A stretch of DNA of 64,000 nucleotides from the IMG/VR virus record IMGVR_UViG_3300047557_004483, positions 1 through 64,000 of that record; one strand, 5' to 3'. Shown in pieces: positions 2,008-46,991 of the stretch; positions within the stretch are counted from its first letter, which is position 1; each line of letters begins with the position of its first letter. Under the pieces are notes generated by a model. That model searched no databases, was not told the origin of the DNA, and saw nothing but the letters and a program-made list of their open reading frames with translations. Made by a program: the position numbers and the translations under genes. The DNA comes from a virus. Taxonomy: Duplodnaviria > Heunggongvirae > Uroviricota > Caudoviricetes.

Positions 2008-2048
2008 AATTTTACATGAAAACCCCCACTTAAAATTGGAAGGGGGGC
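2008..2048 (-). terminator. hairpin CCCCC-n14-GGGGG(G) between genes, probable terminator
   Basis: ccccc at 2023-2027 pairs with ggggg at 2042-2047; a TTTTC run follows on the minus strand. Confidence 0.4.
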
Positions 2049-2058
2049 AAACTTCAAT

Positions 2059-2460
2059 TTATTTCATCTTTCCCTTTATACAAGAATATAAATCCCCAAG
2101 TTGAGATGAAGTTTGTTTTAACGAACTAATACATGGACCACTTTGAAAGTTTGATGTCCCACCACACTCTTTTGGAAATTGAAACTTTGTTTGTTGAATA
2201 CATGCAGAAATCACAGGAACACTATCCTTATTCTTGAAAAGAAAATATGCAACCTTACCCATCATTACAGGAGGGAGGTTTCCCAATACCATTTCAATAG
2301 GAAATAATACCATCTTCTTGAGAACCTGTTTCGCATTTGGTAAATCAAAATTTATTGAAGATAATTTATCCATAAATGATGATTGTTTCTCCTGTTCAAT
2401 TAAAACCCTTTTAACCAACTTCGATAAATCCGACTCAGTTAATCTTACAACCTTTTTCAT
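2059..2460 (-). CDS. small Cys-containing hypothetical protein, family-B leader MKKVVRLTESDLSKLVKRVLIEQ
   Basis: ATG at 2458-2460. Conserved leader; 6 Cys in the C-terminal half. Confidence 0.6.
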   Translation of the reverse strand: MKKVVRLTESDLSKLVKRVLIEQEKQSSFMDKLSSINFDLPNAKQVLKKMVLFPIEMVLGNLPPVMMGKVAYFLFKNKDSVPVISACIQQTKFQFPKECGGTSNFQSGPCISSLKQTSSQLGDLYSCIKGKMK

Positions 2461-2488
2461 ATATTCCTACTTTATCATAAATACAAAA

Positions 2489-2521
2489 TTTTCCCAAAAA
2501 TTTTTTTTTGACTATAGGGGG
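2489..2521 (-). promoter_or_regulatory. conserved upstream element copy 1: (minus strand) CCCCT-ATAGTC-AAAAAAAAATTTTTGGGAAAA, about 50 nt upstream of the ATG of 2059..2460
   Basis: Near-identical copies at 2868-2899 and 3201-3245, each upstream of a minus-strand small gene. Confidence 0.45.
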
Positions 2522-2544
2522 TAAATTATAAAAGGGGGGTCATG

Positions 2545-2832
2545 TTATCTACCATCATATTGCCACATTACAGCATTACAGTGTGAATGAACAGCACCTT
2601 CCGTCATATTAGTTACATGATTATGTTGAAGATGAATCGGATAATCAAAAAACTTGGATGGGAAAAGACTCTCGTCGATTTGTTTGAAAATATGTGGAGA
2701 TAAATTATCCAATCTTTCGCCACAATAATAACACAACCCTTTTTGTTCTGATATATACTGTTCCCTAACTTCCCTCTTCTCTAATTGATTTAGTTTTGTA
2801 TAATCAGTGGGTAAATTATATTTTTTTTCCAT
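2545..2832 (-). CDS. HNH endonuclease
   Basis: CYYCGERL..HLQHNH..HSHCN is a CxxC..H-N-H..CN zinc-finger/HNH motif. The ORF-track start at 2877 is TTG; the first ATG (MEKKYNL) is at 2830-2832. Confidence 0.6.
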   Translation of the reverse strand: MEKKYNLPTDYTKLNQLEKREVREQYISEQKGLCYYCGERLDNLSPHIFKQIDESLFPSKFFDYPIHLQHNHVTNMTEGAVHSHCNAVMWQYDGR

Positions 2833-2867
2833 TTGGTTAGTATAATGAACAAACCGAAATGGGTCAA

Positions 2868-2899
2868 TTTTTCCCAAAAATTTTTTTTGATTAAAGGGG
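2868..2899 (-). promoter_or_regulatory. conserved upstream element copy 2 (CCCCTTTAATC-AAAAAAAATTTTTGGGAAAA on minus strand) upstream of the HNH gene
   Basis: Direct sequence identity with copies 1 and 3; GGGTTTATAAACCC palindrome adjacent. Confidence 0.45.
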
Positions 2900-2900
2900 T

Positions 2901-3173
2901 TTATAAACCCAATTTAGATTTAACGTAAGCCAACAACTCCCTTTCATATTTCAGATATGATTTCCAATATGACTCGTCATCCCCAAACTCATCAATGTCG
3001 TTGAAGTTTTTACTTTTAATTAACTGTCTGATACCATCATATAATGCCGTGTCCAAACTCTCCCCGTCATCAATCATTTCCTTAACGTCAAGAACAATTT
3101 GTTCAAGGTCTTCCATAGAAAACCTCCTTTTCAAAAAATTTGTTAGTTGTGATTCTTTAACAATATAATCCAT
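2901..3173 (-). CDS. hypothetical acidic small protein
   Basis: ATG at 3171-3173; preceded by conserved upstream element copy 3. Confidence 0.5.
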   Translation of the reverse strand: MDYIVKESQLTNFLKRRFSMEDLEQIVLDVKEMIDDGESLDTALYDGIRQLIKSKNFNDIDEFGDDESYWKSYLKYERELLAYVKSKLGL

Positions 3174-3200
3174 AGTTTATAAATACCCAAAATGGTCCCA

Positions 3201-3245
3201 TTTTTCCCAAAAATTTTTTTCGTTTAACAGAGGGGATTATACCCC
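3201..3245 (-). promoter_or_regulatory. conserved upstream element copy 3 (GGGGGTATAATCCCC hairpin + AAAAAAATTTTTGGGAAAA on minus strand)
   Basis: Sequence identity with copies at 2489 and 2868. Confidence 0.45.
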
Positions 3246-3405
3246 CTATTCTGACATTCTGACGTATGGGGAGGGGGGATACCTAGGAGGAGGGGGGTGG
3301 CACCCCCATGCCAGAGGGGGGTATAATGGGGGGGAGTTATCCACAATTTATACCCCTCCCCCTGTTAGTTACTAACAGACATAATGACGGGGGGGGATAA
3401 GTAAG

Positions 3406-3834
3406 TTAAGTTGTGGGGATAAGTTTTTTTGGTATTAAGAAACCTGACACTCCTATTGAGGTGGGGAGTTTAAGGTCAGATGGAATAGATTGGGAGTAGT
3501 GTACTCCTCTGATGGTCTCTTCGATTTCTTTTTGGAGTGGGAGATAGTCTTCCTCTGTATCGAAGAAGAATTTAAATGACATACCATATACATAACCTGG
3601 CATGAATATCTCACTGAGGTATTTTAGGTGGGACCATATCTTTGCTTCGGGGTATTCTTCCATGAACATATTCGGGTCGATAATAATATATACAAAATGG
3701 ACCGAGTTATAGTCTTCGAAGTTCTCGGTGGGGACCACATCAATAATGAAGGGGAACTCTTTCTTTAGTAATCTTTTGGTTACCTTATATTCATAGTTGT
3801 CCAAGAATTCTTCCCTTGTTAGTTTACCGAACAT
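3406..3834 (-). CDS. hypothetical protein
   Basis: Clean ORF; no recognisable motif. Confidence 0.5.
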   Translation of the reverse strand: MFGKLTREEFLDNYEYKVTKRLLKKEFPFIIDVVPTENFEDYNSVHFVYIIIDPNMFMEEYPEAKIWSHLKYLSEIFMPGYVYGMSFKFFFDTEEDYLPLQKEIEETIRGVHYSQSIPSDLKLPTSIGVSGFLIPKKLIPTT

Positions 3835-4102
3835 AAATTATTTTTTGTTATATCATAAATACATTGTATCTTTGCTTTGTCTGAATATAAGTAGGACGGG
3901 CTGGAGCGAACCTCTTGGAGCTGAATCAGGGGCAGGTTGCTTAATAATATTATTAAGGTCAAGTTTTCTGCTCGAAAAACTTGACCTTAATATGTGGATA
4001 ACTTTATTTGGCAATATGGGAAATATTTCGTATCTTTGTAGGTTATTCCCCCCTATAAAAAAAAGTTTTTGCCATGTCAGAAAATAGTCGTATCTTTGTG
4101 GT

Positions 4103-4513
4103 ATGACAAACAACAATAAGACATATCTAAAGACATCGACCATTACAGAGATGACCCTCCCGCAATTAAGGAAGGTGACAGACCTTACTCTTATGTATTG
4201 TACCAATAAGTTCGGGACCCATAAGTATAAGCCTGTGCCTAAGGTCAGCATCATAAACAACCCCGACTATAAGTTCTATGGCATGTTCGAGTGTTCGAAG
4301 AATACCATTGTATTGAACAGGGCATATTGTGATACCGTGAAGTTGTATACCCAAACCCTACTTCATGAGTATACTCACTACCTTCAGAACATGACCAAGT
4401 ATACCCAAATATTCAAGAAGGTTGGATATGATACTCACCCCTATGAAGTGGAGGCAAGAAACAATGAGCAGTTATATTCAGAAGCTTTCAAACAAATAAA
4501 ACCATTGATATGA
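4103..4513 (+). CDS. putative zinc metallopeptidase (HExxH: LLHEYTHYLQ) small protein
   Basis: HEYTH motif with a downstream Glu (HPYEVEA). Two TATCTTTG -7-like promoter elements lie immediately upstream (4027-4042, 4088-4102). Confidence 0.5.
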   Translation: MTNNNKTYLKTSTITEMTLPQLRKVTDLTLMYCTNKFGTHKYKPVPKVSIINNPDYKFYGMFECSKNTIVLNRAYCDTVKLYTQTLLHEYTHYLQNMTKYTQIFKKVGYDTHPYEVEARNNEQLYSEAFKQIKPLI

Positions 4514-4658
4514 GATTCATACTATCCGCACTTGTCGTAGGGTTCCTATTCCTTTGGGGGTTACAAAACATCCCCGACTTTATTGGATATATAATTGTGG
4601 GGACCGTAGTAATTCTATTAGTAAGAGAAATAAATAAAAAGTAATATGAGAAAGTTTC

Positions 4659-4973
4659 TTAAAGCAGTTTTCCTTGGGTATCTCCTGATGTGGGTATGGT
4701 CCCTGTTTCAGAATAGGAACCGATAAGTTGTTGACACCAAGCAACTAAGTCCTTGGGGGTTGCACTCTCCCCACCATAAACGTATAGTCCCTCGACTTTA
4801 GCTTCCACACATGCCCATCCACTCTGTCGGATGGGTTTTGTGTTCCACCCCTTCTTTGCTTTCTCGAAATATAATACCCCCACTTCTATTCCCTCTACCT
4901 GTAATACTACTCTCACTCGGTCCTCAGTAAGTGACTCTATCGTTGGGGTTACAATGTCTTTCCATGTCTTCAT
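4659..4973 (-). CDS. hypothetical protein
   Basis: ORF only. Confidence 0.45.
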   Translation of the reverse strand: MKTWKDIVTPTIESLTEDRVRVVLQVEGIEVGVLYFEKAKKGWNTKPIRQSGWACVEAKVEGLYVYGGESATPKDLVAWCQQLIGSYSETGTIPTSGDTQGKLL

Positions 4974-5697
4974 GTCATAATGGTATTACGGAACATATAA
5001 AAATAAATAATTATCCACACTGACATTGTGTCTGACGCTATTAAAAAAGGGGATGTGGATAACTTTTTATACGGAAAAATTTGGAATTGTCAGAATGTCA
5101 GGGGATGCGTTGAGATGGGGATAATCCCCTCGACACATTTTCCCCCACTTTCTCCCACCACTGATTCCCACTTTTTACCACCGATATTGTGTTATAGATA
5201 GTGTCAGGACCACTTTTTCCCCTCTGCAGATATCAGGAGGACCATATTTTTACTATATCTATTTCCCAGATAAAAAAGGATAATATAGTGTAGTAGCGGG
5301 GGAGTGAACGAAGTGAACCTAAGATAGTATAAAATACCCCTTCAACGACCGAAGGGATAGGTTTTAGATGACCCCTCGTATGGACCAAACGAGTCCCCTT
5401 CATAGTGGACAACTCATATGGTGGGAATATGTGGGAAGAGTATAATTTTGTCATTAGAACCACAAAGTGGTACCTTACACAAAAAATTACTCTTAAAGAA
5501 CTATATGGTTTACTCCTTATGATTATATCTGATTACATATAATTTAAACCGAAGGTATGTTTTTATATGTAATTGCATATAATCATCTAAACAAACCATT
5601 ATACCACCATCTCATTATGTCCTGTCATTAAATGGGGGACGAACTATATGGTGGGGGAGTTGTAAAGGATTACTCGACAACTTATATATTTATTATC

Positions 5698-6243
5698 ATG
5701 GAAGAATCATTAAAGAAATTAATTAGAAAAGTTATACTACCGAAATATTATTGGATTAAGGATTTTGATGTTCAGGTAAGGAAAAAAGATGATACAGGTG
5801 ATTCATATCGTGTTCTTTATTTTGTTGATAAAGATGTACATTATGAACGTAGTGTAATTGATAATATACAAAATGATACTAAAGAATTATATGATGTTCT
5901 CGGACTTCACAAATTTGATTTCTATGAAGGTGTTATGTTTTTTAGTTATCAATCACATAAAATGCAACAATCATTAGAAAAATTAATTGGAGAAGTTATA
6001 CTACCGAAATACCCTTGGATAAAGGATTTTGATGTTTTTGGAGAAGACGATTTCGGAGAGTATATATATAGTATTCACTATTACGTTGATTTTGATGAAT
6101 ATGAGAAAAAGGATAGAAATGAAATTACTCATATAAAATCTGAAAGTAAAAATTTATTTAATTCTCTTGAACCGAAAGAAAATGATTTTTTTAGAGATAT
6201 AGAATTTCTTAATGCTCGAGAATACAATTTGAACCCTAAATAA
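5698..6243 (+). CDS. hypothetical protein with two copies of an about 90-aa repeat (KLI(R/G)xVILPKY(Y/P)WIKDFDV..)
   Basis: Internal duplication. A third copy of the domain forms the next gene. Start moved to the ATG at 5698 (MEESLKK). Confidence 0.55.
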   Translation: MEESLKKLIRKVILPKYYWIKDFDVQVRKKDDTGDSYRVLYFVDKDVHYERSVIDNIQNDTKELYDVLGLHKFDFYEGVMFFSYQSHKMQQSLEKLIGEVILPKYPWIKDFDVFGEDDFGEYIYSIHYYVDFDEYEKKDRNEITHIKSESKNLFNSLEPKENDFFRDIEFLNAREYNLNPK

Positions 6244-7206: not shown

Positions 7207-7713
7207 ATGGATTTAACAAACTACACAATCGAAGAACTTAAAGAATTAAAGAATACAATTTCTAATATGATTCATACACATGAAGATGGTTATTTGTATA
7301 TCTGCAAAGTACGTTCTTACGGACGTAATTGGGTAGAAAGTGATATTAAAAACAAACATACTCTTCAGGACCTTCTTTACAAATACGATGGTGAAGATGG
7401 TATTGTGGATGTTTATTCTACTAACCCCGACCTCGGTGAGATACATAACTATGGTGAATTGAACTATATCGTCTCTGAAGAAGACTATGAAAAGTGGAAC
7501 AGATATGAAGTTCTAAAACAAGTGATATCACAGATTGAAAAACAACTTGAGGATTGGGATAATCGTGATAATATACCATTCGGAGAAAGACCTAAGTTTT
7601 CGCCTATATACACTCGTGAAGACTTGTTGGAATATAAAAAGAAACTTGAGGAGTACGATATGTCTTTTATTCCTCCGAAACCTTTTGTTTCTTCCAATAT
7701 TTATAATACATGA
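7207..7713 (+). CDS. hypothetical protein
   Basis: ORF preceded by TAAATTTG (a TAnnTTTG -7-like element). Confidence 0.55.
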   Translation: MDLTNYTIEELKELKNTISNMIHTHEDGYLYICKVRSYGRNWVESDIKNKHTLQDLLYKYDGEDGIVDVYSTNPDLGEIHNYGELNYIVSEEDYEKWNRYEVLKQVISQIEKQLEDWDNRDNIPFGERPKFSPIYTREDLLEYKKKLEEYDMSFIPPKPFVSSNIYNT

Positions 7714-8162
7714 AATATATCATAACTGAACGACAATTAAATTTGATTAACGAAAACCCCATACAAGGTATACTATCTAAGATAATTAAAAGTAAACCTG
7801 TAACCTCAAATGTTGTCAAAGCAGTTTCTAGTAATGTTGTAAAGGTACCTCTCAAAAGTTTGATGAGACCGAATGGAGTAATAGGCACACAAGGTTTTAC
7901 CTCAGAATCGCTTCTCGATTTAATTAATCATATTTCAAAAGTCCAAAATATTAAATTACCAAAATATAACTCACTGAAAGAGTTAATTTCCCTTCTGTCA
8001 AAAAATCCGAAGGATAAAGAGAAAATAATTCAATATGTTTCTAAGGACCCTATCGTTTTACTCAAATTACCTGATAATACTTTCAAAATAAAAGACGGTA
8101 ACCACAGAGCTAATCTATTGAACCTTTTGGGTGTTGAGCAGGTCCCCTCCATTATAAAATAA
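7710..8162 (+). CDS. ParB-like nuclease-domain protein with family-A leader MKYIITERQLNLINENP
   Basis: C-terminal IKDGNHRANLLNLLGVEQVP matches the ParB/Srx DGxHR motif. Overlaps the previous gene by 4 nt (ATGA). Confidence 0.55.
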   Translation: MKYIITERQLNLINENPIQGILSKIIKSKPVTSNVVKAVSSNVVKVPLKSLMRPNGVIGTQGFTSESLLDLINHISKVQNIKLPKYNSLKELISLLSKNPKDKEKIIQYVSKDPIVLLKLPDNTFKIKDGNHRANLLNLLGVEQVPSIIK

Positions 8163-10662: not shown

Positions 10663-11865
10663 TCACACAAATACTGACGGTATATCCGCCCATGATGTCG
10701 TGAACTTCTGAGACATAAACTCTTGTCTCATTTCCCACTTTTTCTCCGTGTTTGCTGGTGGTTGAACAAGTTGTATGGATGATGAAAATAGCGTACCTTG
10801 TTCTATAGACTCTGGCATTAGCTCATTAAAGATTATCCCACACTTTTTGTATTTCTTCTTATCAGAATATAGTTTCCTTAAATGTGGATATACTTGTGAC
10901 CATATCTCTTCCACATCTCTTGTTTGTCTTTGAAATGTTATTTGTTTGCTTGAATAGTGTTTCTCCCCCTTGTGTACATTTCCACATATGAATATGGTTG
11001 CTCTATTTGGTGATATCTCATTATCTATTAGTTTCTTTATACCACTCTTTATGTACGAATACATCGCTTCAGCTATTTGGTCAAACGAATCTATATCTTG
11101 TCCGAATGACCTTGTGGATGCAACATTTCTTTTTAACTTCGGGACCTTCTGAACAGGATGGCAATATTCCCCTAATAGTTCCATCTTTGTCTTTAACCCA
11201 TTCACATTCATTAACTTTCTTACAATTGCATCTGCCATCATAACAAACTGTCCCACACTATCTACTCCGAGCGAGTTTAACTTCTTTGTCCACTTTCTTC
11301 CTATTCCCCATACTTCATCTATTGGAATTGTGTAAAGTGAATTCCTAAAATTATGTAAAGACCAATATGAACATATTCCATTATATGTCGGTTGTTTCTT
11401 TGCAATATATGACGTTAGTTTTGCCAATGTTTTATTCGGACCTACACCTATTGACACAGGTATTCCCGTTAGTCTCTTAACTTCGTTTCTAATCAAATGT
11501 AACCTGTCTTCTAACTCATCATCAGGTATGTTTGAGAAGTCTACAAAACATTCATCTATGGAATATACTTCTACCTCGTTTGCATATTTCTTTATGGTTG
11601 TCATCACCCTGTCTGACATATCACCATATAAGTTGTAATTTGAACTGTATACACAGAACCTGTGCTCGTCCATGAAGTCTTTCCTCTGAAAGAATGGTTC
11701 TCCCATCTTTATCCCTAAATCTTTGGCTTCTTGTGAACGGGCAATAACACATCCGTCATTGTTGGATAATACAACGGTAGGTCTCCCTATGGATATTGGA
11801 TTGAATACTCTCTCACAACTTACATAGAAATTGTTGCAATCTACAATTCCGATTTTCTTGTTCAT
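10663..11865 (-). CDS. umuC: Y-family translesion DNA polymerase (UmuC/DinB-like)
   Basis: N-terminus IGIVDCNNFYVSCERVFNP..VVLSNNDGCV..AKDLGIKMG is the canonical Y-family palm; it lies downstream of a umuD-like gene, as in the umuDC operon. Confidence 0.85.
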   Translation of the reverse strand: MNKKIGIVDCNNFYVSCERVFNPISIGRPTVVLSNNDGCVIARSQEAKDLGIKMGEPFFQRKDFMDEHRFCVYSSNYNLYGDMSDRVMTTIKKYANEVEVYSIDECFVDFSNIPDDELEDRLHLIRNEVKRLTGIPVSIGVGPNKTLAKLTSYIAKKQPTYNGICSYWSLHNFRNSLYTIPIDEVWGIGRKWTKKLNSLGVDSVGQFVMMADAIVRKLMNVNGLKTKMELLGEYCHPVQKVPKLKRNVASTRSFGQDIDSFDQIAEAMYSYIKSGIKKLIDNEISPNRATIFICGNVHKGEKHYSSKQITFQRQTRDVEEIWSQVYPHLRKLYSDKKKYKKCGIIFNELMPESIEQGTLFSSSIQLVQPPANTEKKWEMRQEFMSQKFTTSWADIPSVFV

Positions 11866-19025: not shown

Positions 19026-20114
19026 CTATTTTATCTTATCCACTAATTTTAATGCAGAAGCAATAATTTGGTGCATATCGTAGTAAATATAATTTGCCAA
19101 TCTACCTCCAAAGAAAATGTTTTTTTCTTTTTTTGATAACTCGGAATATTTCTCATAGAGTGAGCTGTTTACTGAGTCTCTTATTGGATAGTATGGTTCA
19201 TTATATCCTGTGTAGTTTTCTGGGTATTCATAACTCACAATTGTACCTTTTTGTTGTTGGAAATCAAACCATTTGTGTTCTACTATTCTTGTGTAAGGGA
19301 TGTCTTTGTCGGTATAGTTCATAACAGGCACACCTTGAAAGTTATCGTCCTCCAAATGTTTTTCTTCCCATCTTAAACTTCTGTATTCTAACTTTCCGAA
19401 TCTGTAGTCGTAAAATCTATCAATTTCTCCTGTGAATATTACTTTACTACATAGTGAATTATATTTCTCCCTACTTTCGAAATAATCGACCCCTAATTCA
19501 ACATCAATCCCATGCAACATTTTTTCAAATATTTGGGTGTAACCACCTATTGGCATTCCAACGTATTTGTCATCGAAATAACTACTGTTCCATGTAAATC
19601 TTACAGGTAATCTTTTTATAATATATGAAGGTAACTCATCACAAGACTTGTTCCATTGTTTTTCCGTATATCCCTGTATTAATATTCTATATATGTCTTC
19701 CCCAACTAATGATTTTGCTTGTTGTTCTAAATTGACAATTTCCCCTTTGTATTTTTGATTTTCAATAACATTTCTCGCATCAATTTCGTTATTAACCCCC
19801 CATATTTGATTGAAGGTCCACAAATTGAACGGTAAGGAATATATTTTGTCTTTATAGTTAGCTAAAACATTATGTGTATATTGTTTGAATTCCGCGAATT
19901 GATTTACATAGTCCCATAGGTATTTTTCATTGGTATGAAAAATATGAGCCCCATGTTTGTGAACATGAATTCCATTGATGTTTTCAGTATAACAATTACC
20001 TCCAATAACATTCCTCTTATCAATCACTAAACATTTATATCCTAATTTAGTCAATTCATATGCACAAGTTGTGCCGAAAATTCCCGAACCCACAATAAGG
20101 AAATCATACATCAT
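19026..20114 (-). CDS. glf: UDP-galactopyranose mutase
   Basis: MYDFLIVGSGIFG..HKHGAHIFHTN..YLWDYVN with full-length collinearity to Glf (FAD Rossmann fold + YTEKQW + EYRSL + RIVEHK + FGGRLANYIYYDMHQ). Confidence 0.9.
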   Translation of the reverse strand: MMYDFLIVGSGIFGTTCAYELTKLGYKCLVIDKRNVIGGNCYTENINGIHVHKHGAHIFHTNEKYLWDYVNQFAEFKQYTHNVLANYKDKIYSLPFNLWTFNQIWGVNNEIDARNVIENQKYKGEIVNLEQQAKSLVGEDIYRILIQGYTEKQWNKSCDELPSYIIKRLPVRFTWNSSYFDDKYVGMPIGGYTQIFEKMLHGIDVELGVDYFESREKYNSLCSKVIFTGEIDRFYDYRFGKLEYRSLRWEEKHLEDDNFQGVPVMNYTDKDIPYTRIVEHKWFDFQQQKGTIVSYEYPENYTGYNEPYYPIRDSVNSSLYEKYSELSKKEKNIFFGGRLANYIYYDMHQIIASALKLVDKIK

Positions 20115-21277
20115 GAAAAACTAAAAGAAAAACTGTTTAAATTTATAGTCGGTCTTGATAATTTATTTGTATATGTTTCTTTTAAGGTATTTAACAAGGT
20201 ACCAGTATTGTGATAAATTCTATCGTCAATCAAAAAACAAAGATTCGGGTATGGGTTCGGTCTATCAACAGAAGCCATAAATTCTACTAAGTTTAACGCT
20301 TCTTGATATCTACCTTGAGCGTCCAAAATTTCTACTTTGTGGAACAGGTGTTCATTTCTATTAGGACAAAAATCTTCAGCAAAATCAAAATATTTGAATG
20401 TTTTGTCTTTTTCACCCATGAATTCATATGCTTGTGCCATCAAGATTAGTGCAAAATACGCCATTTCATTATTTGATGTTGCAATTGGGTTTTCAGGTGT
20501 CCATCCGTGAACTAACTCCAAATACCTTTCGAAATACCATATACCCCTCCTCGCATACTCGTCCGAGTGTTGCTTACCAAAAGCTAATTCATCAGGTCTA
20601 CCATAACAGTCAGTATAACTTTTTGCAATATACCATAAATGATATAAATCATGTTTAACTTTATCACCAACAATGTTATCAATTTCCAATTCTAAAGCAT
20701 CTCTCAGAAACTTTCTTGGAACGTGCCAAGTTTGCCCATCTTGAGAAACCCTGTGTCTAAATGATTGAGGTAAAGTTACTCTTTGGAAGTTTTCACCAAT
20801 ATTGGGTAAATGAATAGTTTCATGTCTTTTATCTAATTGGAAAAACCAAGGTAATTTAGCGTTCCACATCCATGTTCTCATGTATCTTGTACCTCCATTC
20901 ACAGCATTAACATTCCAACTCTCTACTTTGGTATCATCTAATATACTCCAATCAAAATCGTTATCAATCTCTAAAGTTTCGTCCGCATCCATTCTCAAAA
21001 TCCAGTCACAACCATGGTCAGTTTGTAATGCAACTTGTAAAGTATGATTCCTATTCCAGCCAGGAAAGTTCCATTCAATAAAATAAGTAAACCCTTTGAT
21101 TCCTTTTTGTTTAAAAAAGGTGTCAATTATTTCTCTCGTGTTGTCTCCTTTACCATTACATTGTATTACATAATAATCGATATATGGTGCCACAGACTCC
21201 AACATTCTTGTTATTGTCGGGGCTTCATCACCGACCATCGCATTCAAACAAATTTTAGTTTTTTTATTCATATACAT
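20111..21277 (-). CDS. putative GT-A fold glycosyltransferase (DxD: RMDADE)
   Basis: N-terminal ICLNAMVGDEAP..YVIQCNG resembles a GT2 N-terminus. Overlaps glf by ATGA. Confidence 0.45.
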   Translation of the reverse strand: MYMNKKTKICLNAMVGDEAPTITRMLESVAPYIDYYVIQCNGKGDNTREIIDTFFKQKGIKGFTYFIEWNFPGWNRNHTLQVALQTDHGCDWILRMDADETLEIDNDFDWSILDDTKVESWNVNAVNGGTRYMRTWMWNAKLPWFFQLDKRHETIHLPNIGENFQRVTLPQSFRHRVSQDGQTWHVPRKFLRDALELEIDNIVGDKVKHDLYHLWYIAKSYTDCYGRPDELAFGKQHSDEYARRGIWYFERYLELVHGWTPENPIATSNNEMAYFALILMAQAYEFMGEKDKTFKYFDFAEDFCPNRNEHLFHKVEILDAQGRYQEALNLVEFMASVDRPNPYPNLCFLIDDRIYHNTGTLLNTLKETYTNKLSRPTINLNSFSFSFS

Positions 21278-22511
21278 AATTCATTTTTTGTTCTTCATCA
21301 TAAAACTTTCTTATGGAAACACTATTTTGAAATTTTTGAGAGTGTCCTTCTTCTTCTATCCAATTCCAATCAAAAAATCCTAAGTAATTAATTCTTTCAT
21401 GAATTGCTAAATCATAGTAATCTCTTATTAATCTTGCTCTTCGATTGATATCCTGAGCGTTGTTGTCTGTTGTAGTGTCTCTACTACTATATTGAAAATA
21501 TAAAACTTTTTTCACATGTATCATCCTTGTATTCAAAAAAGTCCTGATGAGTATTTCCAAATCATCTGCTACAGGTGTATTTTTATTGTGTCCTCCGATT
21601 TCATGATACAGATTTCTTTCCCACATTCTTACGTGGTTGGGCATACTAATGTTGAATCTTATAGACAAAGGGTTGATATCAGGATATCTGTGTGCTAATA
21701 TTTCATTTCCATCAACAGTTTCCCATTCATGTCCAGCATAACCAAAATCGAAAAAGTTATCATGTCTTGCATACCAATTACCTGTCCAATCGTGGTCATA
21801 ATATTTAAACTCACCTGTTTCATAGAACTCACAACAATCTGAATATAAAAATCCCGCGTCAGGAAATCGTAGAATAGCATCGTCTGCAACCGCCAAACAA
21901 TTTGTGGTAAGACAATCGTCATGGTCAAGTTCTATTAACCAATCACCATCACACAACATTGCCGCTCTATGTTTTGCCAAACCAACATTCCCACCCGTTA
22001 TTGGATTTAGTTTGTATATTTTAACACGGTAATCTAACGACTCTATGTCTTTTAGAATTTTGAAGGTTTCTTCGTTTGGTGAGTCATCAACAACAACCCA
22101 TTGCCAATTCTTAAGTGTTTGATTTTTTAAACTTTCATACGTTCTATAAATTCTTTCACCCGTATTATACGTGGGGGTAAAAATTGAGAACCTTGGTCTT
22201 ATAACCTCACAGGATTTAAACACGGTTTGACAAACAATATCATTAGCCAAAACACTATCAGGTAATTGTTGTTGATAGTATCTATAAATCCTAAGTAATC
22301 TGTAATTGTTTATTGGAATATCCTGACCAAACGAGATAATTAAGTCAGGTTTATACTTTGTGAAATCAAGTTCCATGTTACCATCATAAGTAAGTGAATA
22401 AACTTCAACACTTTCATGTAACCCTTCCTCCCAATATACATCAGAAGTCAATGTGTGGTGACCAATTCGGTCCCAACCATATACAATAGCCGTAGGTTTT
22501 TTTGTTTTCAT
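21264..22511 (-). CDS. family 2 glycosyltransferase
   Basis: FSIFTPTYNTGERI..VVVDDSPNEET is the classic GT2 N-terminal signature. Confidence 0.75.
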   Translation of the reverse strand: MKTKKPTAIVYGWDRIGHHTLTSDVYWEEGLHESVEVYSLTYDGNMELDFTKYKPDLIISFGQDIPINNYRLLRIYRYYQQQLPDSVLANDIVCQTVFKSCEVIRPRFSIFTPTYNTGERIYRTYESLKNQTLKNWQWVVVDDSPNEETFKILKDIESLDYRVKIYKLNPITGGNVGLAKHRAAMLCDGDWLIELDHDDCLTTNCLAVADDAILRFPDAGFLYSDCCEFYETGEFKYYDHDWTGNWYARHDNFFDFGYAGHEWETVDGNEILAHRYPDINPLSIRFNISMPNHVRMWERNLYHEIGGHNKNTPVADDLEILIRTFLNTRMIHVKKVLYFQYSSRDTTTDNNAQDINRRARLIRDYYDLAIHERINYLGFFDWNWIEEEGHSQKFQNSVSIRKFYDEEQKMNYVYE

Positions 22512-23713: not shown

Positions 23714-23748
23714 AATAAAAAATCCCTCAATTTGAGGGACCTTTTTTC
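23714..23748. terminator. bidirectional terminator hairpin TCCCTCAA-T-TTGAGGGA flanked by A-run and T-run
   Basis: Palindrome with AAATAAAAAA on the 5' side and CCTTTTTTCC on the 3' side. Confidence 0.55.
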
Positions 23749-27561: not shown

Positions 27562-28107
27562 TTATTCTTGAGTGTTTTGTATAATTGGGGTGAAATTTTT
27601 ACCCGAATCACTCATTATTCTGAAAGTTTGTATTTCTCCCAAATCGGGGAAACTTACCTGTTCTACAGTAATTCCCCACTTCTCCACCTGTTCGTTAATC
27701 TCAGGTGTTACCACACTACTCAAATCATACAAATCAGCCCATTTACAACCTTCAACTATATCACGAATAATTCCCTGTGTTGTATCAACCAAGACATCAT
27801 TAGCATGCATTACTCCTAACAAAAACTTTCTAACGTCGTGAATATGGTATCGAACAATACTTGTGAGAACGACACTTTTCTCATCTTCAGAAGTCACAGT
27901 TTGGGGTGATAAGTTTACAGTCTGAGTTATTACAGGAGTTGTGATTATTTGGTCAAAGAAAGGAATTTTCCAATTCAAACCCGGTTCCACAACCTTTATG
28001 AATTTACCTACTCTGAGATGAACACCCATTTCCCATTGGTCAACAATTTTGAAGGGTAAAAAATCTCCAATAAAAGTTACGATTAAATCGATGAGTTTGT
28101 CAAACAT
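27562..28107 (-). CDS. SPFH/band-7 (stomatin/prohibitin/HflK-C-like) domain protein
   Basis: VDQWEMGVHLRVGKF..PGLNWKIPFFDQI.. fits the SPFH N-terminal signature. Confidence 0.65.
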   Translation of the reverse strand: MFDKLIDLIVTFIGDFLPFKIVDQWEMGVHLRVGKFIKVVEPGLNWKIPFFDQIITTPVITQTVNLSPQTVTSEDEKSVVLTSIVRYHIHDVRKFLLGVMHANDVLVDTTQGIIRDIVEGCKWADLYDLSSVVTPEINEQVEKWGITVEQVSFPDLGEIQTFRIMSDSGKNFTPIIQNTQE

Positions 28108-32649: not shown

Positions 32650-33600
32650 TAGTTAAAAAAACTTTGAGAATACAAGTTCTATTTGAGAATCTTTAGAAGG
32701 ATTATGGTTTCCCTCCGTTTCCACTTCCTTTTGAGAAGTAATCCTCAGTGACGATTAATTAGGTTAATCAAACCTTGAGTTGTCAGATACTCTCTTGATA
32801 CTTGCTACTCCTCGATGATGCCTCACCAATACTTCCTTGCGAGAATAGAGAACTTTTTCAAAAATCGTGTCGGGTTTGGGACCCTTCACGGCCGTGAACT
32901 TCTCACGACTATGTAGTCACCTTTCACTGACAACTGACGGACACTTTTCCGTTTGTAATTATTATTGTTAATAACATTTAACAAATGAATTGGTTTGTGG
33001 ATTTGGAAAGTAGCGGTCCGTCAACCTGCTTCCCCATCTTTTGAACGAGGAAATACTGAACTACTCTCTGAGACATCCCTGCCTCCATACTTCAAGTTTA
33101 CTTCATAACTCATGCCTTGGTAGGCTAAGGTTAAGGAGAACAACAGCACCACCTGTACGAACTCATACCTTTCGGTTTTAAGTCAACTCTGATATTGAAT
33201 CACGCAATTGTATAGTTGGATGACCATACTTCTTGCAGGAGTTCTACGGGTTATTCTTATCGGTGTTCCCACCTCAACCAAACGACCCACATCGCTTGGT
33301 CATCATTCCATTTCGCCTACAGTGTCACCCTCAGCTACTCAGGGACAATGATATCCCGCTTGTCTACTCAAGCTCAACAGAGGACACCCCTATCGAGCCG
33401 CAACCTACTTCAACCGAGGTAGGTCACTTTATACTGCTTTCACAGTTTATTTTATGGACTATAGACCGCCCAATATCTTGAATCAAAGAACTATCAAGTT
33501 TGAAGGAAAAAGGTATTTTTACGACCTGAAACCTTTCAGGAACCTTTACAACCCGTTTCCTTCAATTGTTCTACAAAACTAAGAAGGGTTTTTGATACTT
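32650..33600 (-). ncRNA. ORF-free, GC-elevated region adjacent to the tRNA; candidate structured non-coding RNA(s)
   Basis: About 1 kb with no ORF above 82 aa and visibly higher GC than the flanks. Contains palindromes TTCACGGCCGTGAA and CCTGAAAGGTTTCAGG. Confidence 0.3.
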
Positions 33601-33626
33601 CCAAATTTTATTAGAACTTTTTTTTG

Positions 33627-33698
33627 TTGCGTGAGTAAGAATCGAACTTACGACCTAAAGGTTATGAGCCTTCCGAGCTACCGCTGCTCTATCACGCG
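33627..33698 (-). tRNA. tRNA with CAT anticodon (Met/fMet, or Ile2 if lysidinylated)
   Basis: Manual fold: acceptor stem 2-7/66-71, D-stem GAGC/GCTC, anticodon stem GAAGG/CCTTT, loop CTCATAA, T-arm GTAAG-TTCGATT-CTTAC. A C1·A72 mismatch and an A11:U24 pair are initiator-like. No CCA is encoded. Confidence 0.8.
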
Positions 33699-34005
33699 AT
33701 GTTAAGTTAAATTCTACCCATTCCCCGTCGTCACCATCCAAGTCATGCTCTGGTTGTACATGGGTAGAATCAATATATTAAAGAACTTTATTCGATTAAA
33801 AAGTCCCACAAATCTACGATACTTTTCTCAAACTACCAAATTCGTGGGACTAAGGGGGGAGAGATGTTTGACCATCTCATTTGTTTCACAAAGTTAAGAA
33901 GAATTTCTCAATTCGTCAAATTTTTTCTTGTGAAACTTTTTTTGTGGGGTGTTCACCTTTTTACAGGTGTGGATATATAAATATCACATTAATTTGTAAA
34001 GTCAA

Positions 34006-34443: not shown

Positions 34444-34791
34444 ATGAAAGTAAAAATAAATGAAAATATCTTCAAGGTCAAAACTTTAATTGATGAAAAT
34501 TCACAAACCCTTGGAATGCAGAATAAAAGTTTTGATAATACTTTCGATGGGTTGCTTTTTCTGATGGGTGGAAAAGAACAATGTTTTTGGATGAAAGACT
34601 GTATTATACCCTTGGATATAATAATGATTAAAAATAACGTTATAGTTAATATTCACCACGACTGTCCTCCATGTAAAGGTGATGACTGTCCTTCTTACTG
34701 TGGTAAAGGTAATATTGTTTTAGAACTTGAGGGTGGTACTTGTGAAGAGGTAGGTATTGAACCAGGTGATTCAATAGAATATATTTTCTAG
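34444..34791 (+). CDS. DUF192-family protein
   Basis: LGMQNKSF..DGLLFLMGG..FWMKDCIIPLDIIMI..IVLELEGG fits the DUF192/COG1430 signature. Start moved to the ATG at 34444. Confidence 0.55.
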   Translation: MKVKINENIFKVKTLIDENSQTLGMQNKSFDNTFDGLLFLMGGKEQCFWMKDCIIPLDIIMIKNNVIVNIHHDCPPCKGDDCPSYCGKGNIVLELEGGTCEEVGIEPGDSIEYIF

Positions 34792-35345
34792 TTTGACTTC
34801 CAAACTTTTTCTTCTACACCAATAACAAATCCAACGTATCTTGAAAGAACAAATAGATAGTCACTTAATCTATTCAGGTAAATTAAAATTTCGTTAGGAA
34901 CTGATTCCAAAACACAAAGTCTTTCTGCTCTTCTACAGACAGTTCTACATACGTGAGCAGTAGAAACATATATGTGACCACCAGGTAGTATAAAGTTTTT
35001 CAATTCAGGAAGAACATTATCCATTTTGTCAATCCAATTTTCTAAAGATTTCACATCTTCTGAATCAACTGATGATAATTCGAAACCTAACTTAGCATTT
35101 GGGTCTTTAGAAACTACAGAACCTATTTTGAATAGGTTATTTTGAATGATATTCAATTGCAGTTGTTGTTCCATAAATTTAGACTTATCTGAAAATAAAT
35201 GGTCAGAGAGTAACCCAATAAATGAGTTCAATTCGTCTATGGTTCCGTATGCTTCTATTCTTAAATTGTTTTTTGGGACTTTTGTTCCACCTAATAAAGA
35301 AGTATACCCTTTGTCTCCTGTCTTTGTGTATACTTTTTTACTCAT
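34788..35345 (-). CDS. PduO-type ATP:cob(I)alamin adenosyltransferase
   Basis: MSKKVYTKTGDKGYTSLLGGTKVPKNNLRIEAYGTIDELNS is the hallmark PduO-type N-terminus. Confidence 0.85.
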   Translation of the reverse strand: MSKKVYTKTGDKGYTSLLGGTKVPKNNLRIEAYGTIDELNSFIGLLSDHLFSDKSKFMEQQLQLNIIQNNLFKIGSVVSKDPNAKLGFELSSVDSEDVKSLENWIDKMDNVLPELKNFILPGGHIYVSTAHVCRTVCRRAERLCVLESVPNEILIYLNRLSDYLFVLSRYVGFVIGVEEKVWKSN

Positions 35346-43872: not shown

Positions 43873-44907
43873 ATGTCAACTTGGAAAGATTATATTGAAG
43901 AATTCAACTCAGGAGATACAGACTTTTTAGGAAACTTTGGAGATGATATTGGTCTGTTCGTAGATTTAATAACTCAGAAAGGATTACTTAAATACTTGAA
44001 CGTTAATGCAAGTATGGAACCTGAAGTTGAGAATAAAGTTGTGTTGGCCTTTTATGAACATCACATGCCAAGTTATATAGAATTTTTACAAGAGAATTTG
44101 AGTGATGTAGAATTTGAAAATGGAGTGTTTTATTTTGTCGGTGACCCTTCAGATTTATCTACTCTTTTTGATGAAGGTAGAAATACCTTGCAGAAAAAAA
44201 CTGTAGAAAAAATTTTGAGTGGTGAAGGTTTAGACTTTGAATTTTTTGACTACACAACAGACAACGTTTATTCCGACGTTGTTGAAGAATTGAATATTGT
44301 AAATTTGCAATCCTTATATGAAGCCGTTCTTTACTTTTCCAAAGACGTTCAAATAGAACCAAGTACAGAACTTTTAGAATTGATTGCTGAAGAACAAGGT
44401 CACCCTGATTTTGTAATCATAGACAAAAACAATGTTGAAAGAATTGTCGATGACAGAGAAACTTTCGAATCACTTCTTAATGATGAATTATCTGATTTGA
44501 AGGGTAATCTCATAAACCTTCATCATTGGGCTTACAATTCAGCATATGAAGAAGAAGTTTACGAGGAAGTTTGGAATCAGCTTGATAAGTTTTTTGTCAC
44601 TGACCAAAAGAAATGGGTTTCAGTACCAATGTATACAGGACCTGCTGGTTCACAAAAGATTGCAAGTACTATAGAAAGAATGAAATTACCAATAAGAAAT
44701 TTACCCGAAATAATAAATGATTATCTAAGATGGAATGTGGAAGCTACATATCCAGAATCAGTTAGGTATTATGGTAACTACTCAGCAATATTGACATGGG
44801 TTCTCGACGAAAACCGTGATTATTCAAAGGTATATCCCCCTGATTTTCCTGATAGTTCTAAAGTTGATAAAAACATCAACGAAATGTTCAACGATTATAT
44901 ATACTAA
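43873..44907 (+). CDS. hypothetical protein
   Basis: Clean ORF converging on the fibre genes. Confidence 0.55.
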
Positions 44908-46991
44908 CCATTAAGTTTGTCTTCTATCTTTTTTAACTTATCCTCTACCTGAGTCAATAATCTATATTGTTCTTTAATTGCTTGAGTGCAAATTGCAACA
45001 ATCTCAGAGTATTTTACTTTATATCCATTTTTTTCGTCACCATATACAACCTGTGGTAAAACCTCTTGAAGTTCTTGTGCAATGAAACCTATATCATCAT
45101 CGTCTTTCTTGTGAATATGATATTTTTCTGGGTTCTTCCACTTAAATCTAACACCCCTCAATTTTTGGATTATACTAACAGCATCCTCTATTACTTTGAT
45201 ATTTTTCTTCATCCTTGAATCAGACGGTGGTCCGATTGCACCTGTTCTACCTGTCTGTCCAATATTACCTTGAGCACCTTGAGCTCCTTGTGGACCAGGT
45301 CCTCCACTTTGTCCTTGAGCTCCTTGGGCACCTGTTGCTCCTTGTGCACCTTGAGGACCCGCGGGATTACCCGCAAGGTTATTACCTTGGTCACCAAAAT
45401 TTCCTTGAGCACCCTGAGTACCTGGTGGGCCAGGAGTTGGTTGACCTTGAGCACCTTGAAATCCTTGACCACCAACAGGTCCTTGAGCACCTTGAGCACC
45501 GGGGGGACCTGTATTCCCTTGTGGTCCAGGTGCTCCTATAGGACCTGGTGCACCTGGCGGACTAAGTCCTGGTGCTCCTTGAGCCCCTTGAGCACCTTTC
45601 GAACCCTGACTTCCTGCGACTCCAGGAGTTCCTTGTGCACCTTGTGGTCCTTGTGGTCCGAGAGCTCCAGGATTACCTGTAGGTCCTTGAGCACCTTGTG
45701 CTCCTTGCCCTCCTTGAGCTCCTTGAGGTCCCTGAGCTCCTTGAGCTCCCTGAGCACCCTGAGCACCCTGAGGTCCTAAAGCACCTTGTGCACCTTGACC
45801 ACCCCGTGGGCCTTGAGGACCCGCAGTCAAAGATTGAGCTCCTTGAGCACCTTGACCTCCTTGAGCACCAACAGCTCCTTGTGCTCCCTGCGCTCCCTGA
45901 GCTCCCTGTCCTCCTTGAGCACCTTGAGCGCCTTGACCTCCTTGAGCACCTTGACCTCCTTGAGCACCTTGGCCTCCTTGAGCACCTTGACCTCCTTGAG
46001 GACCAACAGCTCCCTGCGCTCCTTGTATTCCTTGAGCACCTTGACCACCTTGAGCTCCTTGAGCACCTTGACCTCCTTGAGCACCTTGTATTCCTTGAGC
46101 ACCTTGACCTCCTTGAGCGCCTTGAGCACCTTGACCTCCTTGAGCACCTTGAGCACCTTGACCTCCCTGAGCACCTTGAGCACCCTGTCCTCCTTGAGCA
46201 CCCTGTCCTCCTTGAGCACCCTGTCCTCCCTGTGCTCCAATGTTTGCCCCTGGGGCACCTGTATTTCCTTGAGCACCTTGAGCTCCTTGAGCACCTTGAG
46301 CTCCTGTTGCTCCTTGAGCACCTTGAGCACCCTGTCCTCCTTGAGCACCCTGTCCTCCTTGGGCACCTTGTCCTCCTTGGGCACCAACGTTACCCACAGC
46401 ACCCTGAGCACCTTGACCTCCCTGAGCACCTTGAGCACCCTGTCCTCCTTGAGCACCCTGTCCTCCTTGAGCACCCTGTCCTCCTTGAGCACCCTGTCCT
46501 CCTTGAGCACCTTGAGCTCCTGTTGCTCCTTGAGCACCTTGTCCTCCTTGAGCACCTTGTCCTCCTTGAGCACCAACGTTACCCGCAACACCCTGAGCAC
46601 CTTGACCTCCCTGAGCACCTTGAGCACCTTGTGCACCTTGAGCACCTTGACCTCCCTGAGCACCTTGAGCACCTTGTGCTCCTTGGGGCCCTTGTGTACC
46701 TGAAGAACCTTTTGCACCTTGAGCTCCTTGGGGTCCTTGTGGTTGTCTGTTACCCTGCCATGCCGTCGTATTAATCAAAGTTCCAGCATCATTAATAAGA
46801 GTATTGGTTAATCGTAAATCTGCATTTGTAACTCTGAAATTAGGATAAGTATTATCCAAGGACAGATAAGTAGTAACCCCTCTTCTAAATTGTAAACTAG
46901 CTGAGGTTACAACCAAATCAGTTTGGGTCGTTGCAGAGTCATAAAAGGAAATCGTCCCCGTACCAGGCGTTATCTTAATATCTTCAGGCAA
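44904..46991 (-). CDS. collagen-like (GAQGGQ triplet) tail-fibre/host-attachment protein with C-terminal Peptidase_S74 intramolecular-chaperone domain
   Basis: About 450 aa of Gly-X-Y repeats. C-terminus [46 protein letters not shown] matches the endosialidase/tail-spike CIMCD Ser-Lys dyad region. Confidence 0.8.

Follow-up and report, generated by a model that had tools for sequence, protein, structure and literature searches.

A conserved array of putative DnaA boxes in a divergent early control region of uncultured phages

To our knowledge, the use of host DnaA by phages has been documented mainly for lambda and P1 in Escherichia coli, and we know of nothing on how replication or early transcription is controlled in Bacteroidota phages. 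Here we analyze a stretch of 64,000 nucleotides from a Caudoviricetes genome (hereinafter, the window; IMG/VR record IMGVR_UViG_3300047557_004483, positions 1 to 64,000) in which the 9-mer TTATCCACA, a perfect match to the DnaA box consensus, occurs four times around a set of small genes. DnaA is also a transcription factor: in lambda, boxes protected by DnaA lie near pO, and DnaA stimulates the transcriptional activation of ori-lambda (PMC8203912, PMC3985674). In E. coli, dnaA is autoregulated through a DnaA box located between dnaAp1 and dnaAp2. The Schaper-Messer consensus of the box, TTWTNCACA, is degenerate at positions 3 and 5 (PMC5835720). DnaA boxes in the control or origin regions of phages such as lambda and P1 are a known kind of element; what appears to be new is an arrangement of perfect-consensus boxes in multiple islands with mirror-image modules, apparently conserved over a broad clade of uncultured Bacteroidota phages, along with minority lineages that seem to carry re-specified words at the same positions and an adjacent, apparently covarying hairpin.

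The four boxes appear to be genuine, selected cis-elements of the DnaA-box type within a deeply conserved early control region. Three non-coding islands make up this region, arranged around four small genes that form a 1.8-kb cassette, and transcription diverges outward from it. The boxes are predicted binding sites rather than chance occurrences because at least 16 related lineages have retained the same words at homologous positions. Host DnaA is rather probably the ligand when all functional readings are added up, and the specific reading that we favor, tentatively and at slightly less than an even chance, is that it would act at this region chiefly while bound to promoters, as a regulator or an architectural factor. 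The layout of the region is as follows.

3174-3405, no strand: island 1, G-rich and non-coding, between two minus-strand genes, with the leftward-facing copy of the mirror module
3337-3345, plus strand: box 1, TTATCCACA, which reads TTATACACA in L006, L019, L020 and L022
3835-4102, plus strand: island 2, a divergent promoter region with tandem Bacteroidota-type promoters P1 (3844-3874), P2 (4007-4038) and P3 (4068-4098)
3993-4001, minus strand: box 2, reading TGTGGATAA on the plus strand, immediately 5' to the -33 TTTG of P2
4974-5697, no strand: island 3, conserved and non-coding over 724 bp; contains structured elements in addition to the mirror module in its rightward-facing copy
5011-5019, plus strand: box 3, reading TGTGGATAA on the minus strand and abutting the T-rich CTTTATTTTTAT upstream of the 104-aa gene
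5054-5062, minus strand: box 4, exact, with TTTGGAtTTGTCAgAATGTCAGGGGA and then the hairpin GGGGATAATCCCC at a fixed distance
4659-4973, minus strand: anchor gene (104 aa), the best-conserved neighbor, with boxes 3 and 4 in its promoter region
2901-3173 (minus), 3406-3834 (minus), 4103-4513 (plus), 4510-4644 (plus), 4659-4973 (minus) and, downstream, 5698-6243 (plus): genes around the boxes in the map of open reading frames (ORFs)

All four exact copies lie between ORFs, in non-coding DNA, and are distributed over the three islands. Dinucleotide-preserving shuffles give an expectation of 1.01 copies of TTATCCACA per 64 kb, or about 0.03 per 1.7-kb span compared with the four observed, so the claim of an earlier, sequence-only reading that four perfect DnaA boxes occur at these places far above chance is borne out. 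When the collagen repeats are masked, TTATCCACA ranks among the most tightly clustered 9-mers of the window. As would be expected of DnaA boxes, the sites match the consensus 9-mer, and both their number and their clustering exceed chance; the clustering is limited to the exact word, with no enrichment across the window of one-mismatch words (21 vs 25.9 expected) or of the relaxed TTWTNCACA (12 vs 12.2). The similarity extends beyond the box itself, an 11-mer, AGTTATCCACA, being common to three of the four sites and an identical 14-mer, ATGTGGATAACTTT, being present at 3992-4005 and 5053-5066. A fifth exact copy, at 57171-57179 on the minus strand, lies within a Dam-like methylase gene (56393-57232), has neither a partner nor an island context and is probably a chance occurrence. 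The near-match previously placed at 33958 is really ATATCCACA at 33968-33976 on the minus strand. The G-rich setting that had been attributed to all boxes holds for box 1 (GC content of 0.53-0.63, GC skew of +0.35 to +0.47) and in part for boxes 3 and 4 (skew of +0.3 to +0.6), but not for box 2, the surroundings of which are AT-rich (GC of about 0.3); the GC content of the window is about 32%.

Near-identical public contigs exist, and the more distant relatives are the informative ones. In one of these (L006; L numbers denote related loci), located on a 105-kb contig, the downstream protein is 42% identical and the gene order is unchanged; the three islands are 67-78% identical to those of the window at the nucleotide level, compared with 45-69% for the flanking genes (18-68% at the amino acid level). 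Anchoring on the 104-aa gene yielded a graded series of loci from public assemblies (L017-L032) and, through a profile scan, 22 IMG/VR loci with anchor identities of 43-57% on contigs of 36-321 kb. Across 21 non-redundant lineages, including nine with an anchor protein 43-57% identical to that of the window, no other 9-mer has as many copies upstream of the anchor gene as TTATCCACA (27, at 16 loci), and exact boxes are 22 times as dense within the module (1.28 per kb) as outside it (0.059 per kb). In the distant lineages, the boxes are kept while the spacers between them have diverged; therefore, the boxes themselves seem to be the target of selection. Most of the substitutions fall at degenerate positions, five of the seven events at retained boxes hitting position 3 or 5 of TTWTNCACA (P ~0.007 by a post hoc count). 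Boxes 1 and 3 and two additional boxes described below, 1' and 3', vary as TTATACACA or TTTTCCACA, with TTCTCCACA, TTATCCCCA and TTATTAACA as exceptions. The 3' flank of 58 exact boxes from 17 lineages favors C-T-T-T (33, 50, 34 and 30 of the 58, respectively; flanks TGTGGATAACTTT). The relatives show four recurrent box contexts, which correspond to the four boxes of the window, and carry, in most lineages, up to 6-7 boxes within 2 kb, with 4-7 sites per genome. DNA and protein searches against cultured phages detected no relative of the module, and one structural protein gave weak matches, to jumbo Pseudomonas phages only. Scans of IMG/VR with two conserved non-box 19-20-mers returned nothing, and single-protein scans almost nothing.

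The host of the phage is very probably a member of the Bacteroidota. The promoter signature TTTG-N17-22-TAnnTTTG is present in 16 copies in the window, compared with 3.1 in shuffles (maximum of 8), nearly all of them intergenic and three in island 2; because this signature is enriched, the Bacteroidota host, already suggested by the sequence-only reading, is well supported. Box 2 forms a unit with the second of the island 2 promoters, CAT followed by GTGGATAAC-TT(T)ATTT(T)GG-N19-TAnCTTTG, in which the box abuts the -33 TTTG of the plus-strand promoter. The register ATGTGGATAAC-TT(T)ATTT(T)GG-N19-TAnCTTTG is common to the window, L006, L018, L029, L036 and L037; in these five relatives, box 2 is exact and the unit also overlaps the start codon of the leftward gene. 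Box 2 is degraded in L022 (TTATTAACA) and missing from L024. Box 3 shares the orientation and register of box 2, against the T-rich, -33-like CTTTATTTTTAT upstream of the 104-aa gene, an element kept in 15 of the 21 lineages; the arrangement TGTGGATAAC-TTTATTTTTAT, with box 3 abutting CTTTATTTTTAT, is found in at least seven lineages, and box 3 itself reads TTTTCCACA or TTCTCCACA in relatives. A further box, 3', absent in the window and present in several lineages, overlaps TATATTTA just before the ATG in L037, L038 and L041. A fixed position relative to the core elements, as expected for DnaA-regulated promoters, is observed for boxes 2, 3 and 3'. Given the fixed register of two of the four boxes with promoter elements, and given the divergent layout of the genes, transcriptional control is the favored function.

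Under the favored reading, host DnaA would bind the boxes. In island 2, one of them immediately precedes the -33 TTTG of a sigma-A-type promoter; another has the same register and orientation at the T-rich -33-like element of the 104-aa promoter, the -7 element and start site of which are overlapped by a further box in several relatives; and the two remaining boxes head the mirror-image, outward-facing modules of islands 1 and 3. Such binding, reminiscent of the DnaA-stimulated transcription near the lambda origin, could couple early phage transcription to the initiation status of the host, and events in the neighboring structured island 3 might be coupled to it as well. Both the occupancy of the boxes by DnaA and the sign of its transcriptional effect are points that we infer. 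The same sites might be viewed as an element that titrates DnaA or modulates its state, akin to datA or DARS, and so perturbs host replication. Their number is comparable to that in datA, with its two consensus and four one-misfit boxes (PMC5835720), and the copy number of the phage would multiply them. A sink, however, needs no positional conservation of each site, whereas the sites here are in precise register with promoters and gene starts and are distributed among three islands. Since each genome has 4-7 sites, at such exact positions in a regulatory architecture, the DnaA sink entertained by the sequence-only reading is very unlikely.

Boxes 1 and 4 belong to the two mirror-image, outward-facing modules, each of which combines a box, GTCAGAATGTCAG and a small G/C hairpin. 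Within the window, these companion motifs are restricted to islands 1 and 3. The elements that accompany the two boxes are the following.

3232-3263, minus strand: companion elements of island 1, namely the G/C hairpin GGGGATTATACCCC at 3232-3245 and CTGACATTCTGAC at 3251-3263
3362-3378, no strand: palindrome of 17 bp, CTGTTAGTTACTAACAG, carried by an insertion of about 28 nt (3362-3390) that separates box 1 from its partner
3414-3422, minus strand: box 1', a remnant that converges with box 1 as its partner; it reads TTATCCCCA, with one mismatch, and lies in the final codons of the predicted 142-aa ORF
5089-5129, plus strand: companion elements of island 3, namely GTCAGAATGTCAG at 5089-5101 and the hairpin GGGGATAATCCCC at 5117-5129

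Island 1, for which a multi-clade alignment was made, is 72% identical to its L006 counterpart compared with 45-55% for the flanking genes. The context of box 1, TGTGGATAAC-T-CCCCCC...TACCCCCCTCTGGCATGGGG, is found again in distant lineages; on the minus strand, the box is followed by C-runs, ...CCTCTGGCATGGGG, GTCAGAATGTCAG and GGGGGTATAATCCCC. The partner of box 1 in the relatives is TGTGGA[T/A]AA, 18 nt away, and the 28-nt insertion with the palindrome is found in the window only, among the six aligned island 1 sequences. Box 4 is exact in L006, L013, L017, L018, L022, L029, L033, L035, L036, L037, L041, L043 and L047. Some secondary coordinates in the sequence-only reading were shifted by 7-8 bases: the palindrome is present, at 3362-3378 and not at 3369-3385, and the first CTGACATTCTGAC repeat is at 3251-3263 and not at 3243-3255; its exact inverse at 5089-5101 was correctly placed, and the copy at 5020-5032 has two mismatches. 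The GGGGATAAGT repeats are located at 3393 and 3415. Two other interpretations of the modules were considered and rejected, namely that GTCAGAATGTCAG is a phage-specific promoter (the motif is confined to islands 1 and 3) and that the mirror modules delimit an invertible cassette (the gene orientation is constant in all relatives).

Several observations weigh against the regulatory use of host DnaA. No sigma-A promoter is recognizable beside box 1 or box 4, the window's own version of the 104-aa promoter has a weak -7 element, and the host assignment comes solely from promoter motifs; neither the box 4 21-mer nor the 104-aa family has a match among 185,579 species-representative genomes, which accordingly give no clue to a host or a prophage. 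A single word is not found wherever the module occurs: three lineages (L024-L028, class B) carry TTAG[C/G/T]C[A/G]AA, two or three times each, in place of boxes 3 and 4, and L042 and L046 carry TTAT[C/T]AACA at homologous positions. Each of these changes is repeated in several copies, which is predicted by a co-evolving phage factor and not by a universal host protein. Moreover, all relatives were found via the 104-aa gene, so that unrecognized DNA binding by its product would be confounded with the boxes. In class B, the converging arrangement is kept and position 5 is again free (class-B sequence TTAGCCAAAT). The class-B lineages, which have no boxes of the TTATCCACA type in the islands, each contain one exact TTATCCACA 45 nt into the gene adjoining island 3 (L025 2626, L026 3085, L027 2257, L028 692), where the word probably represents codons of the W-I-K motif conserved in the KYPWIKDF family.

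These minority words bear on the possibility that the boxes are operators for a phage-encoded protein that co-evolves with its sites. The majority target would then coincide with the DnaA box or mimic it, competition with DnaA being one conceivable purpose. Such a protein would account for the three motif classes at homologous positions (TTATCCACA in 16 lineages, TTAGNCRAA in L024-L028, TTATYAACA in L042 and L046) and for concerted changes across several copies per genome; the freedom of position 5 in both class A and class B suggests related modes of recognition, the extended preference TGTGGATAA-C-T-T-T exceeds the 9-bp box, and the sites cluster around always-present neighbor genes, as in immunity regions. 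Nevertheless, we consider this possibility doubtful. An arbitrary 9-mer would match the perfect DnaA consensus by chance with a probability of about 8e-6, and the specificity is constant in 16 lineages despite a divergence of their proteins down to 43% identity, as would be expected of host DnaA, for which the perfect consensus being the dominant word and the pattern of degeneracy also speak. A DNA-binding fold was not found in either of the two always-present adjacent conserved proteins, which thus provide no support as the putative factor, and a crude tblastn search of 372 kb with an E. coli sequence detected no coding sequence resembling DnaA domain IV. Host DnaA therefore seems more likely to be the ligand than a phage factor, which in that role is improbable.

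The other elements of island 3, which is 73-78% identical to that of L006, are relevant to two further readings.

5134-5224, plus strand: four C-rich direct repeats of the CCCACTTT type, iteron-like, kept in the aligned class-A relatives
5519-5586, no strand: three-tier AT-rich hairpin of 68 nt with a C-GAA-G apex; the stems vary by clade and complementarity is kept

Paired CCCCT(T)C..TGGAC repeats with variable spacing are present as well. In the three-tier hairpin, 87.4% of the cells are paired, compared with 79.3% in shuffles (0/500) and 29-48% with slid partners; changes on both sides are seen at seven pairs, the outer, inner and apical stems are all clade-variable, and all eight versions individually give a similar fold. 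The apex varies as C-GAA-G, C-GCA-G and C-GTA-G, and a second mini-hairpin flips among clades (CC-GAA-GG vs GG-GAA-CC). Loops of the C-GNA-G type are typical of stable DNA hairpins at single-strand phage origins. In the lineage of the window, an insertion of about 80 nt (5436-5518), shared in part with L010, precedes the three-tier hairpin.

This variation raises the possibility that island 3, and perhaps island 1, is a large structured non-coding RNA or a long 5' leader in which the inverted boxes 3 and 4 are the arms of an RNA stem rather than protein-binding sites. One hairpin does show real compensatory variation (87% vs 79%, with seven double-sided pairs), L013 has a hairpin-shaped insertion in a conserved block, the mini-hairpin is flipped, the arms formed by boxes 3 and 4 are still complementary in class B despite the different sequence, and the genome already encodes a GOLLD RNA. 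Consensus folding of the whole island, however, yields a tiny covariation term, with similar scores for the two strands; the paired positions of the hairpin (five G.T vs ten A.C) show no strand preference and no wobble strand bias; and Rfam, at both gathering and permissive thresholds, has no family in 3100-5800 or in L013 (the best match is sraA, with 31.5 bits vs a gathering score of 56). A large RNA is therefore not established in island 3, and a DNA-level palindrome appears equally possible. Furthermore, the box word occurs also as a singleton (box 2) and as a direct repeat (box 4 together with TTTTCCACA in L033, L041 and L047), neither of which can pair; changes at position 3 of box 3 are uncompensated in five clades; and neither a promoter nor a terminator brackets the region in the window. 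An RNA of this kind is very improbable. A long-range RNA helix, CCCAC.../...GTGGG, was also considered and rejected given that the changes in L006, as judged by eye, are non-compensatory.

Initiation of replication in island 3 is the main rival to the regulatory reading. The module, and island 3 in particular, would be a phage replication origin in which the DnaA array helps to melt or organize the adjacent iteron-like repeats and an extrudable AT-rich hairpin, and the promoter-linked boxes would supply transcriptional activation, by analogy with P1 oriR and plasmid origins that combine DnaA boxes with iterons. In favor of this possibility are the cluster of boxes itself (four exact ones and a remnant in the window, up to 6-7 within 2 kb in relatives); the 0.7-1 kb of conserved non-coding DNA in island 3 with four CCCACTTT-type repeats and CCCCT(T)C..TGGAC pairs; the AT-rich hairpin with its compensatory changes and the C-GNA-G mini-hairpins; the paired positions without strand bias, which fit a DNA-level palindrome; and divergence of transcription from the region along with a local change of GC-skew sign at 3-4 kb. 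The sign change, which spans 3-9 kb in the window, is local, though, and coincides with plus-strand genes, and the cumulative skew has no minimum here and keeps falling to 64 kb, tracking gene orientation. The search for an unwinding element beside the boxes found no adjacent AT-rich repeats: the most AT-rich stretch, the hairpin at 5519-5586 (GC of 0.22-0.27), is not an AT-rich repeat array and lies about 460 bp from boxes 3 and 4, and AT-rich tandem repeats adjoin no box. The boxes are scattered over three islands split by genes, unlike in a packed oriC, and no initiator, helicase, primase or polymerase was recognized with Pfam and PHROGs among the scanned ORFs of the window or among the listed precomputed Pfam assignments for the flanks of the relatives. 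With nothing specific to an origin in the 64 kb and no replication or initiator gene recognized, the replication origin proposed by the sequence-only reading is possible but unlikely.

More broadly, the module could be a DnaA-hijacking device spread across a broad clade of uncultured freshwater Bacteroidota phages, including those with contigs of more than 300 kb, either as a DnaA-dependent origin or through a phage-encoded reader of the boxes. In the former version, the conserved C-GNA-G DNA hairpins would act as initiation signals; in the latter, the protein would compete with DnaA, and its specificity would have shifted twice (to TTAGNCRAA and to TTATYAACA) together with all the sites. We regard such a device as unlikely and retain promoter-bound host DnaA as the preferred interpretation.

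Island 2 contains one more conserved segment.

3876-3992, plus strand: leader- or small-RNA-like segment (3876-3945) after P1, followed by a perfect hairpin with a 17-bp stem (3951-3992) that ends at box 2

The segment of about 70 nt downstream of P1, TCTGAAT..GTAGGACGGGCTGGAG..CTCTTGGAGCT.AATCAG, is kept in L006, L018 and L022 and could be a small RNA or a leader. The hairpin that follows it in the window is of the GTCAAGTTT...AAACTTGAC type, and L006, L013, L018 and L022 have a hairpin of this type in island 3 too, at its 3' end. The gene downstream of island 3 is the following.

5698-6243, plus strand: gene of the 'KYPWIKDF' tandem-domain family

This gene starts at 5698 rather than at the first ATG of the ORF (5632), given that the homologs align only from residue 23; the segment 5632-5697, including that ATG, carries conserved non-coding sequence. 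The protein comprises two tandem copies of one domain, each of about 88 aa, and its confident AlphaFold model (pLDDT of 88) contains a ferredoxin-like alpha-beta-beta-alpha-beta arrangement twice. In L013, successive KYPWIKDF paralogs occupy 2041-3411, and small ORFs on the same strand continue to 6276. The codons for PWIK (CCGTGGATAAA) yield words close to the DnaA box within the coding sequence of this family.

Eight of the 22 IMG/VR contigs end less than 1 kb from the anchor gene, and many short contigs begin inside island 2 or island 3 (contigs noted for breaks are L033, L034, L037, L040, L043, L044, L045 and L054); the L006 scaffold has a gap of 100 N (7671-7770) in island 1. This pattern suggests assembly breaks at conserved islands or islands with G-runs rather than fixed genome ends. 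Fixed termini at the module are unlikely also because identical regions end at differing distances across contigs.

Elsewhere in the window, a complete GOLLD RNA (32661-33068, minus strand; 316 bits vs a gathering score of 150) adjoins a tRNA-Met(CAT) gene (33626-33698, minus strand), with Bacteroidota-type promoters at 33605, 33840 and 33920, all on the minus strand, directly upstream. A second clustered word, CAATTATCACA (related to ATTGTGATGG), occurs at 24503, 24725, 24899 and 26450, with 3-4 copies in 2 kb close to divergent promoters at 23715 and 24366 (both annotated on the minus strand), and resembles another operator set. An intergenic unit, TTTTCCCAAAAATT(TTT), is present at 2489, 2869, 3202 and 34009 as well as in L006, L018, L020, L022 and L024; it lies upstream of successive minus-strand genes, follows a small G/C hairpin on the gene strand and shows a weak, sub-threshold likeness to Rfam sraA (31.5 bits vs 56). 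Three tandem genes (44904-51286, minus strand) encode tail-fibre-like proteins of about 700 aa that have both collagen triple-helix repeats and, at the C-terminus, a Peptidase_S74 chaperone domain; the GC content of these genes is 45-58% within the 32% GC genome. The window also encodes DNA methylases and a set of auxiliary proteins atypical for a phage, namely a UmuC-like Y-family polymerase, a full-length DnaJ, a cobalamin adenosyltransferase, an SPFH/Band-7 protein and a UDP-galactopyranose mutase with two glycosyltransferases (10663-11865, 57592-58509, 34788-35345, 27562-28107 and 19026-22511, all on the minus strand). A gene for a UmuC-like polymerase adjoins the module also in L025-L027.

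At least 16 uncultured lineages have kept the perfect-consensus box array, at conserved positions, as a fixed component of their early control region. If DnaA indeed binds these boxes, the phages would sense or exploit the initiation state of the host, and the module would be a ready-made cis-element of about 2 kb for a group that has no genetic tools. The minority words at the same positions are a natural experiment on the joint change of binding specificity and sites and, should a phage-encoded reader exist, would amount to a natural series of re-targeted DnaA-box readers. For the recovery of these genomes, it is relevant that the conserved islands appear to break metagenome assemblies.

Among the described systems, the stable C-GNA-G DNA mini-hairpins of single-strand phage origins and the hairpin promoters of phage N4 offer a lead only: short stems with GAA, GCA or GTA triloops and compensatory changes are found in island 3, the phage in this case being a large double-stranded DNA phage. 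The origins of P1 (oriR), F, pSC101 and RK2 similarly combine DnaA boxes with neighboring AT-rich DNA and short direct repeats in conserved non-coding segments, but here there is no adjacent cognate Rep or initiator gene, the repeats are C-rich and few, and the boxes are interleaved with genes. Like datA and DARS of E. coli, the module is a small cluster of high-affinity DnaA boxes outside oriC (PMC5835720); however, only the number of boxes is comparable, datA and DARS titrating DnaA or changing its nucleotide state and requiring IHF, whereas the positions here are tied to promoters. With the E. coli dnaA promoter, the module shares the consensus TTATCCACA in or beside promoter elements and the presence of several close boxes of differing quality (PMC8203912, PMC5835720); the difference is that the box here abuts the -33 element upstream instead of lying between two promoters, and that the regulated genes are small phage genes of unknown function. 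Compared with lambda, which has two consensus-like boxes, there are 4-7 perfect or near-perfect ones in three islands with mirror-image modules, in a Bacteroidota phage with TTTG/TAnnTTTG promoters and without an O/P-type initiator gene nearby. What the two have in common is a phage genome with consensus-like DnaA boxes beside its own promoters, which in lambda allow host DnaA to modulate early, replication-linked transcription (PMC3985674, PMC8203912).

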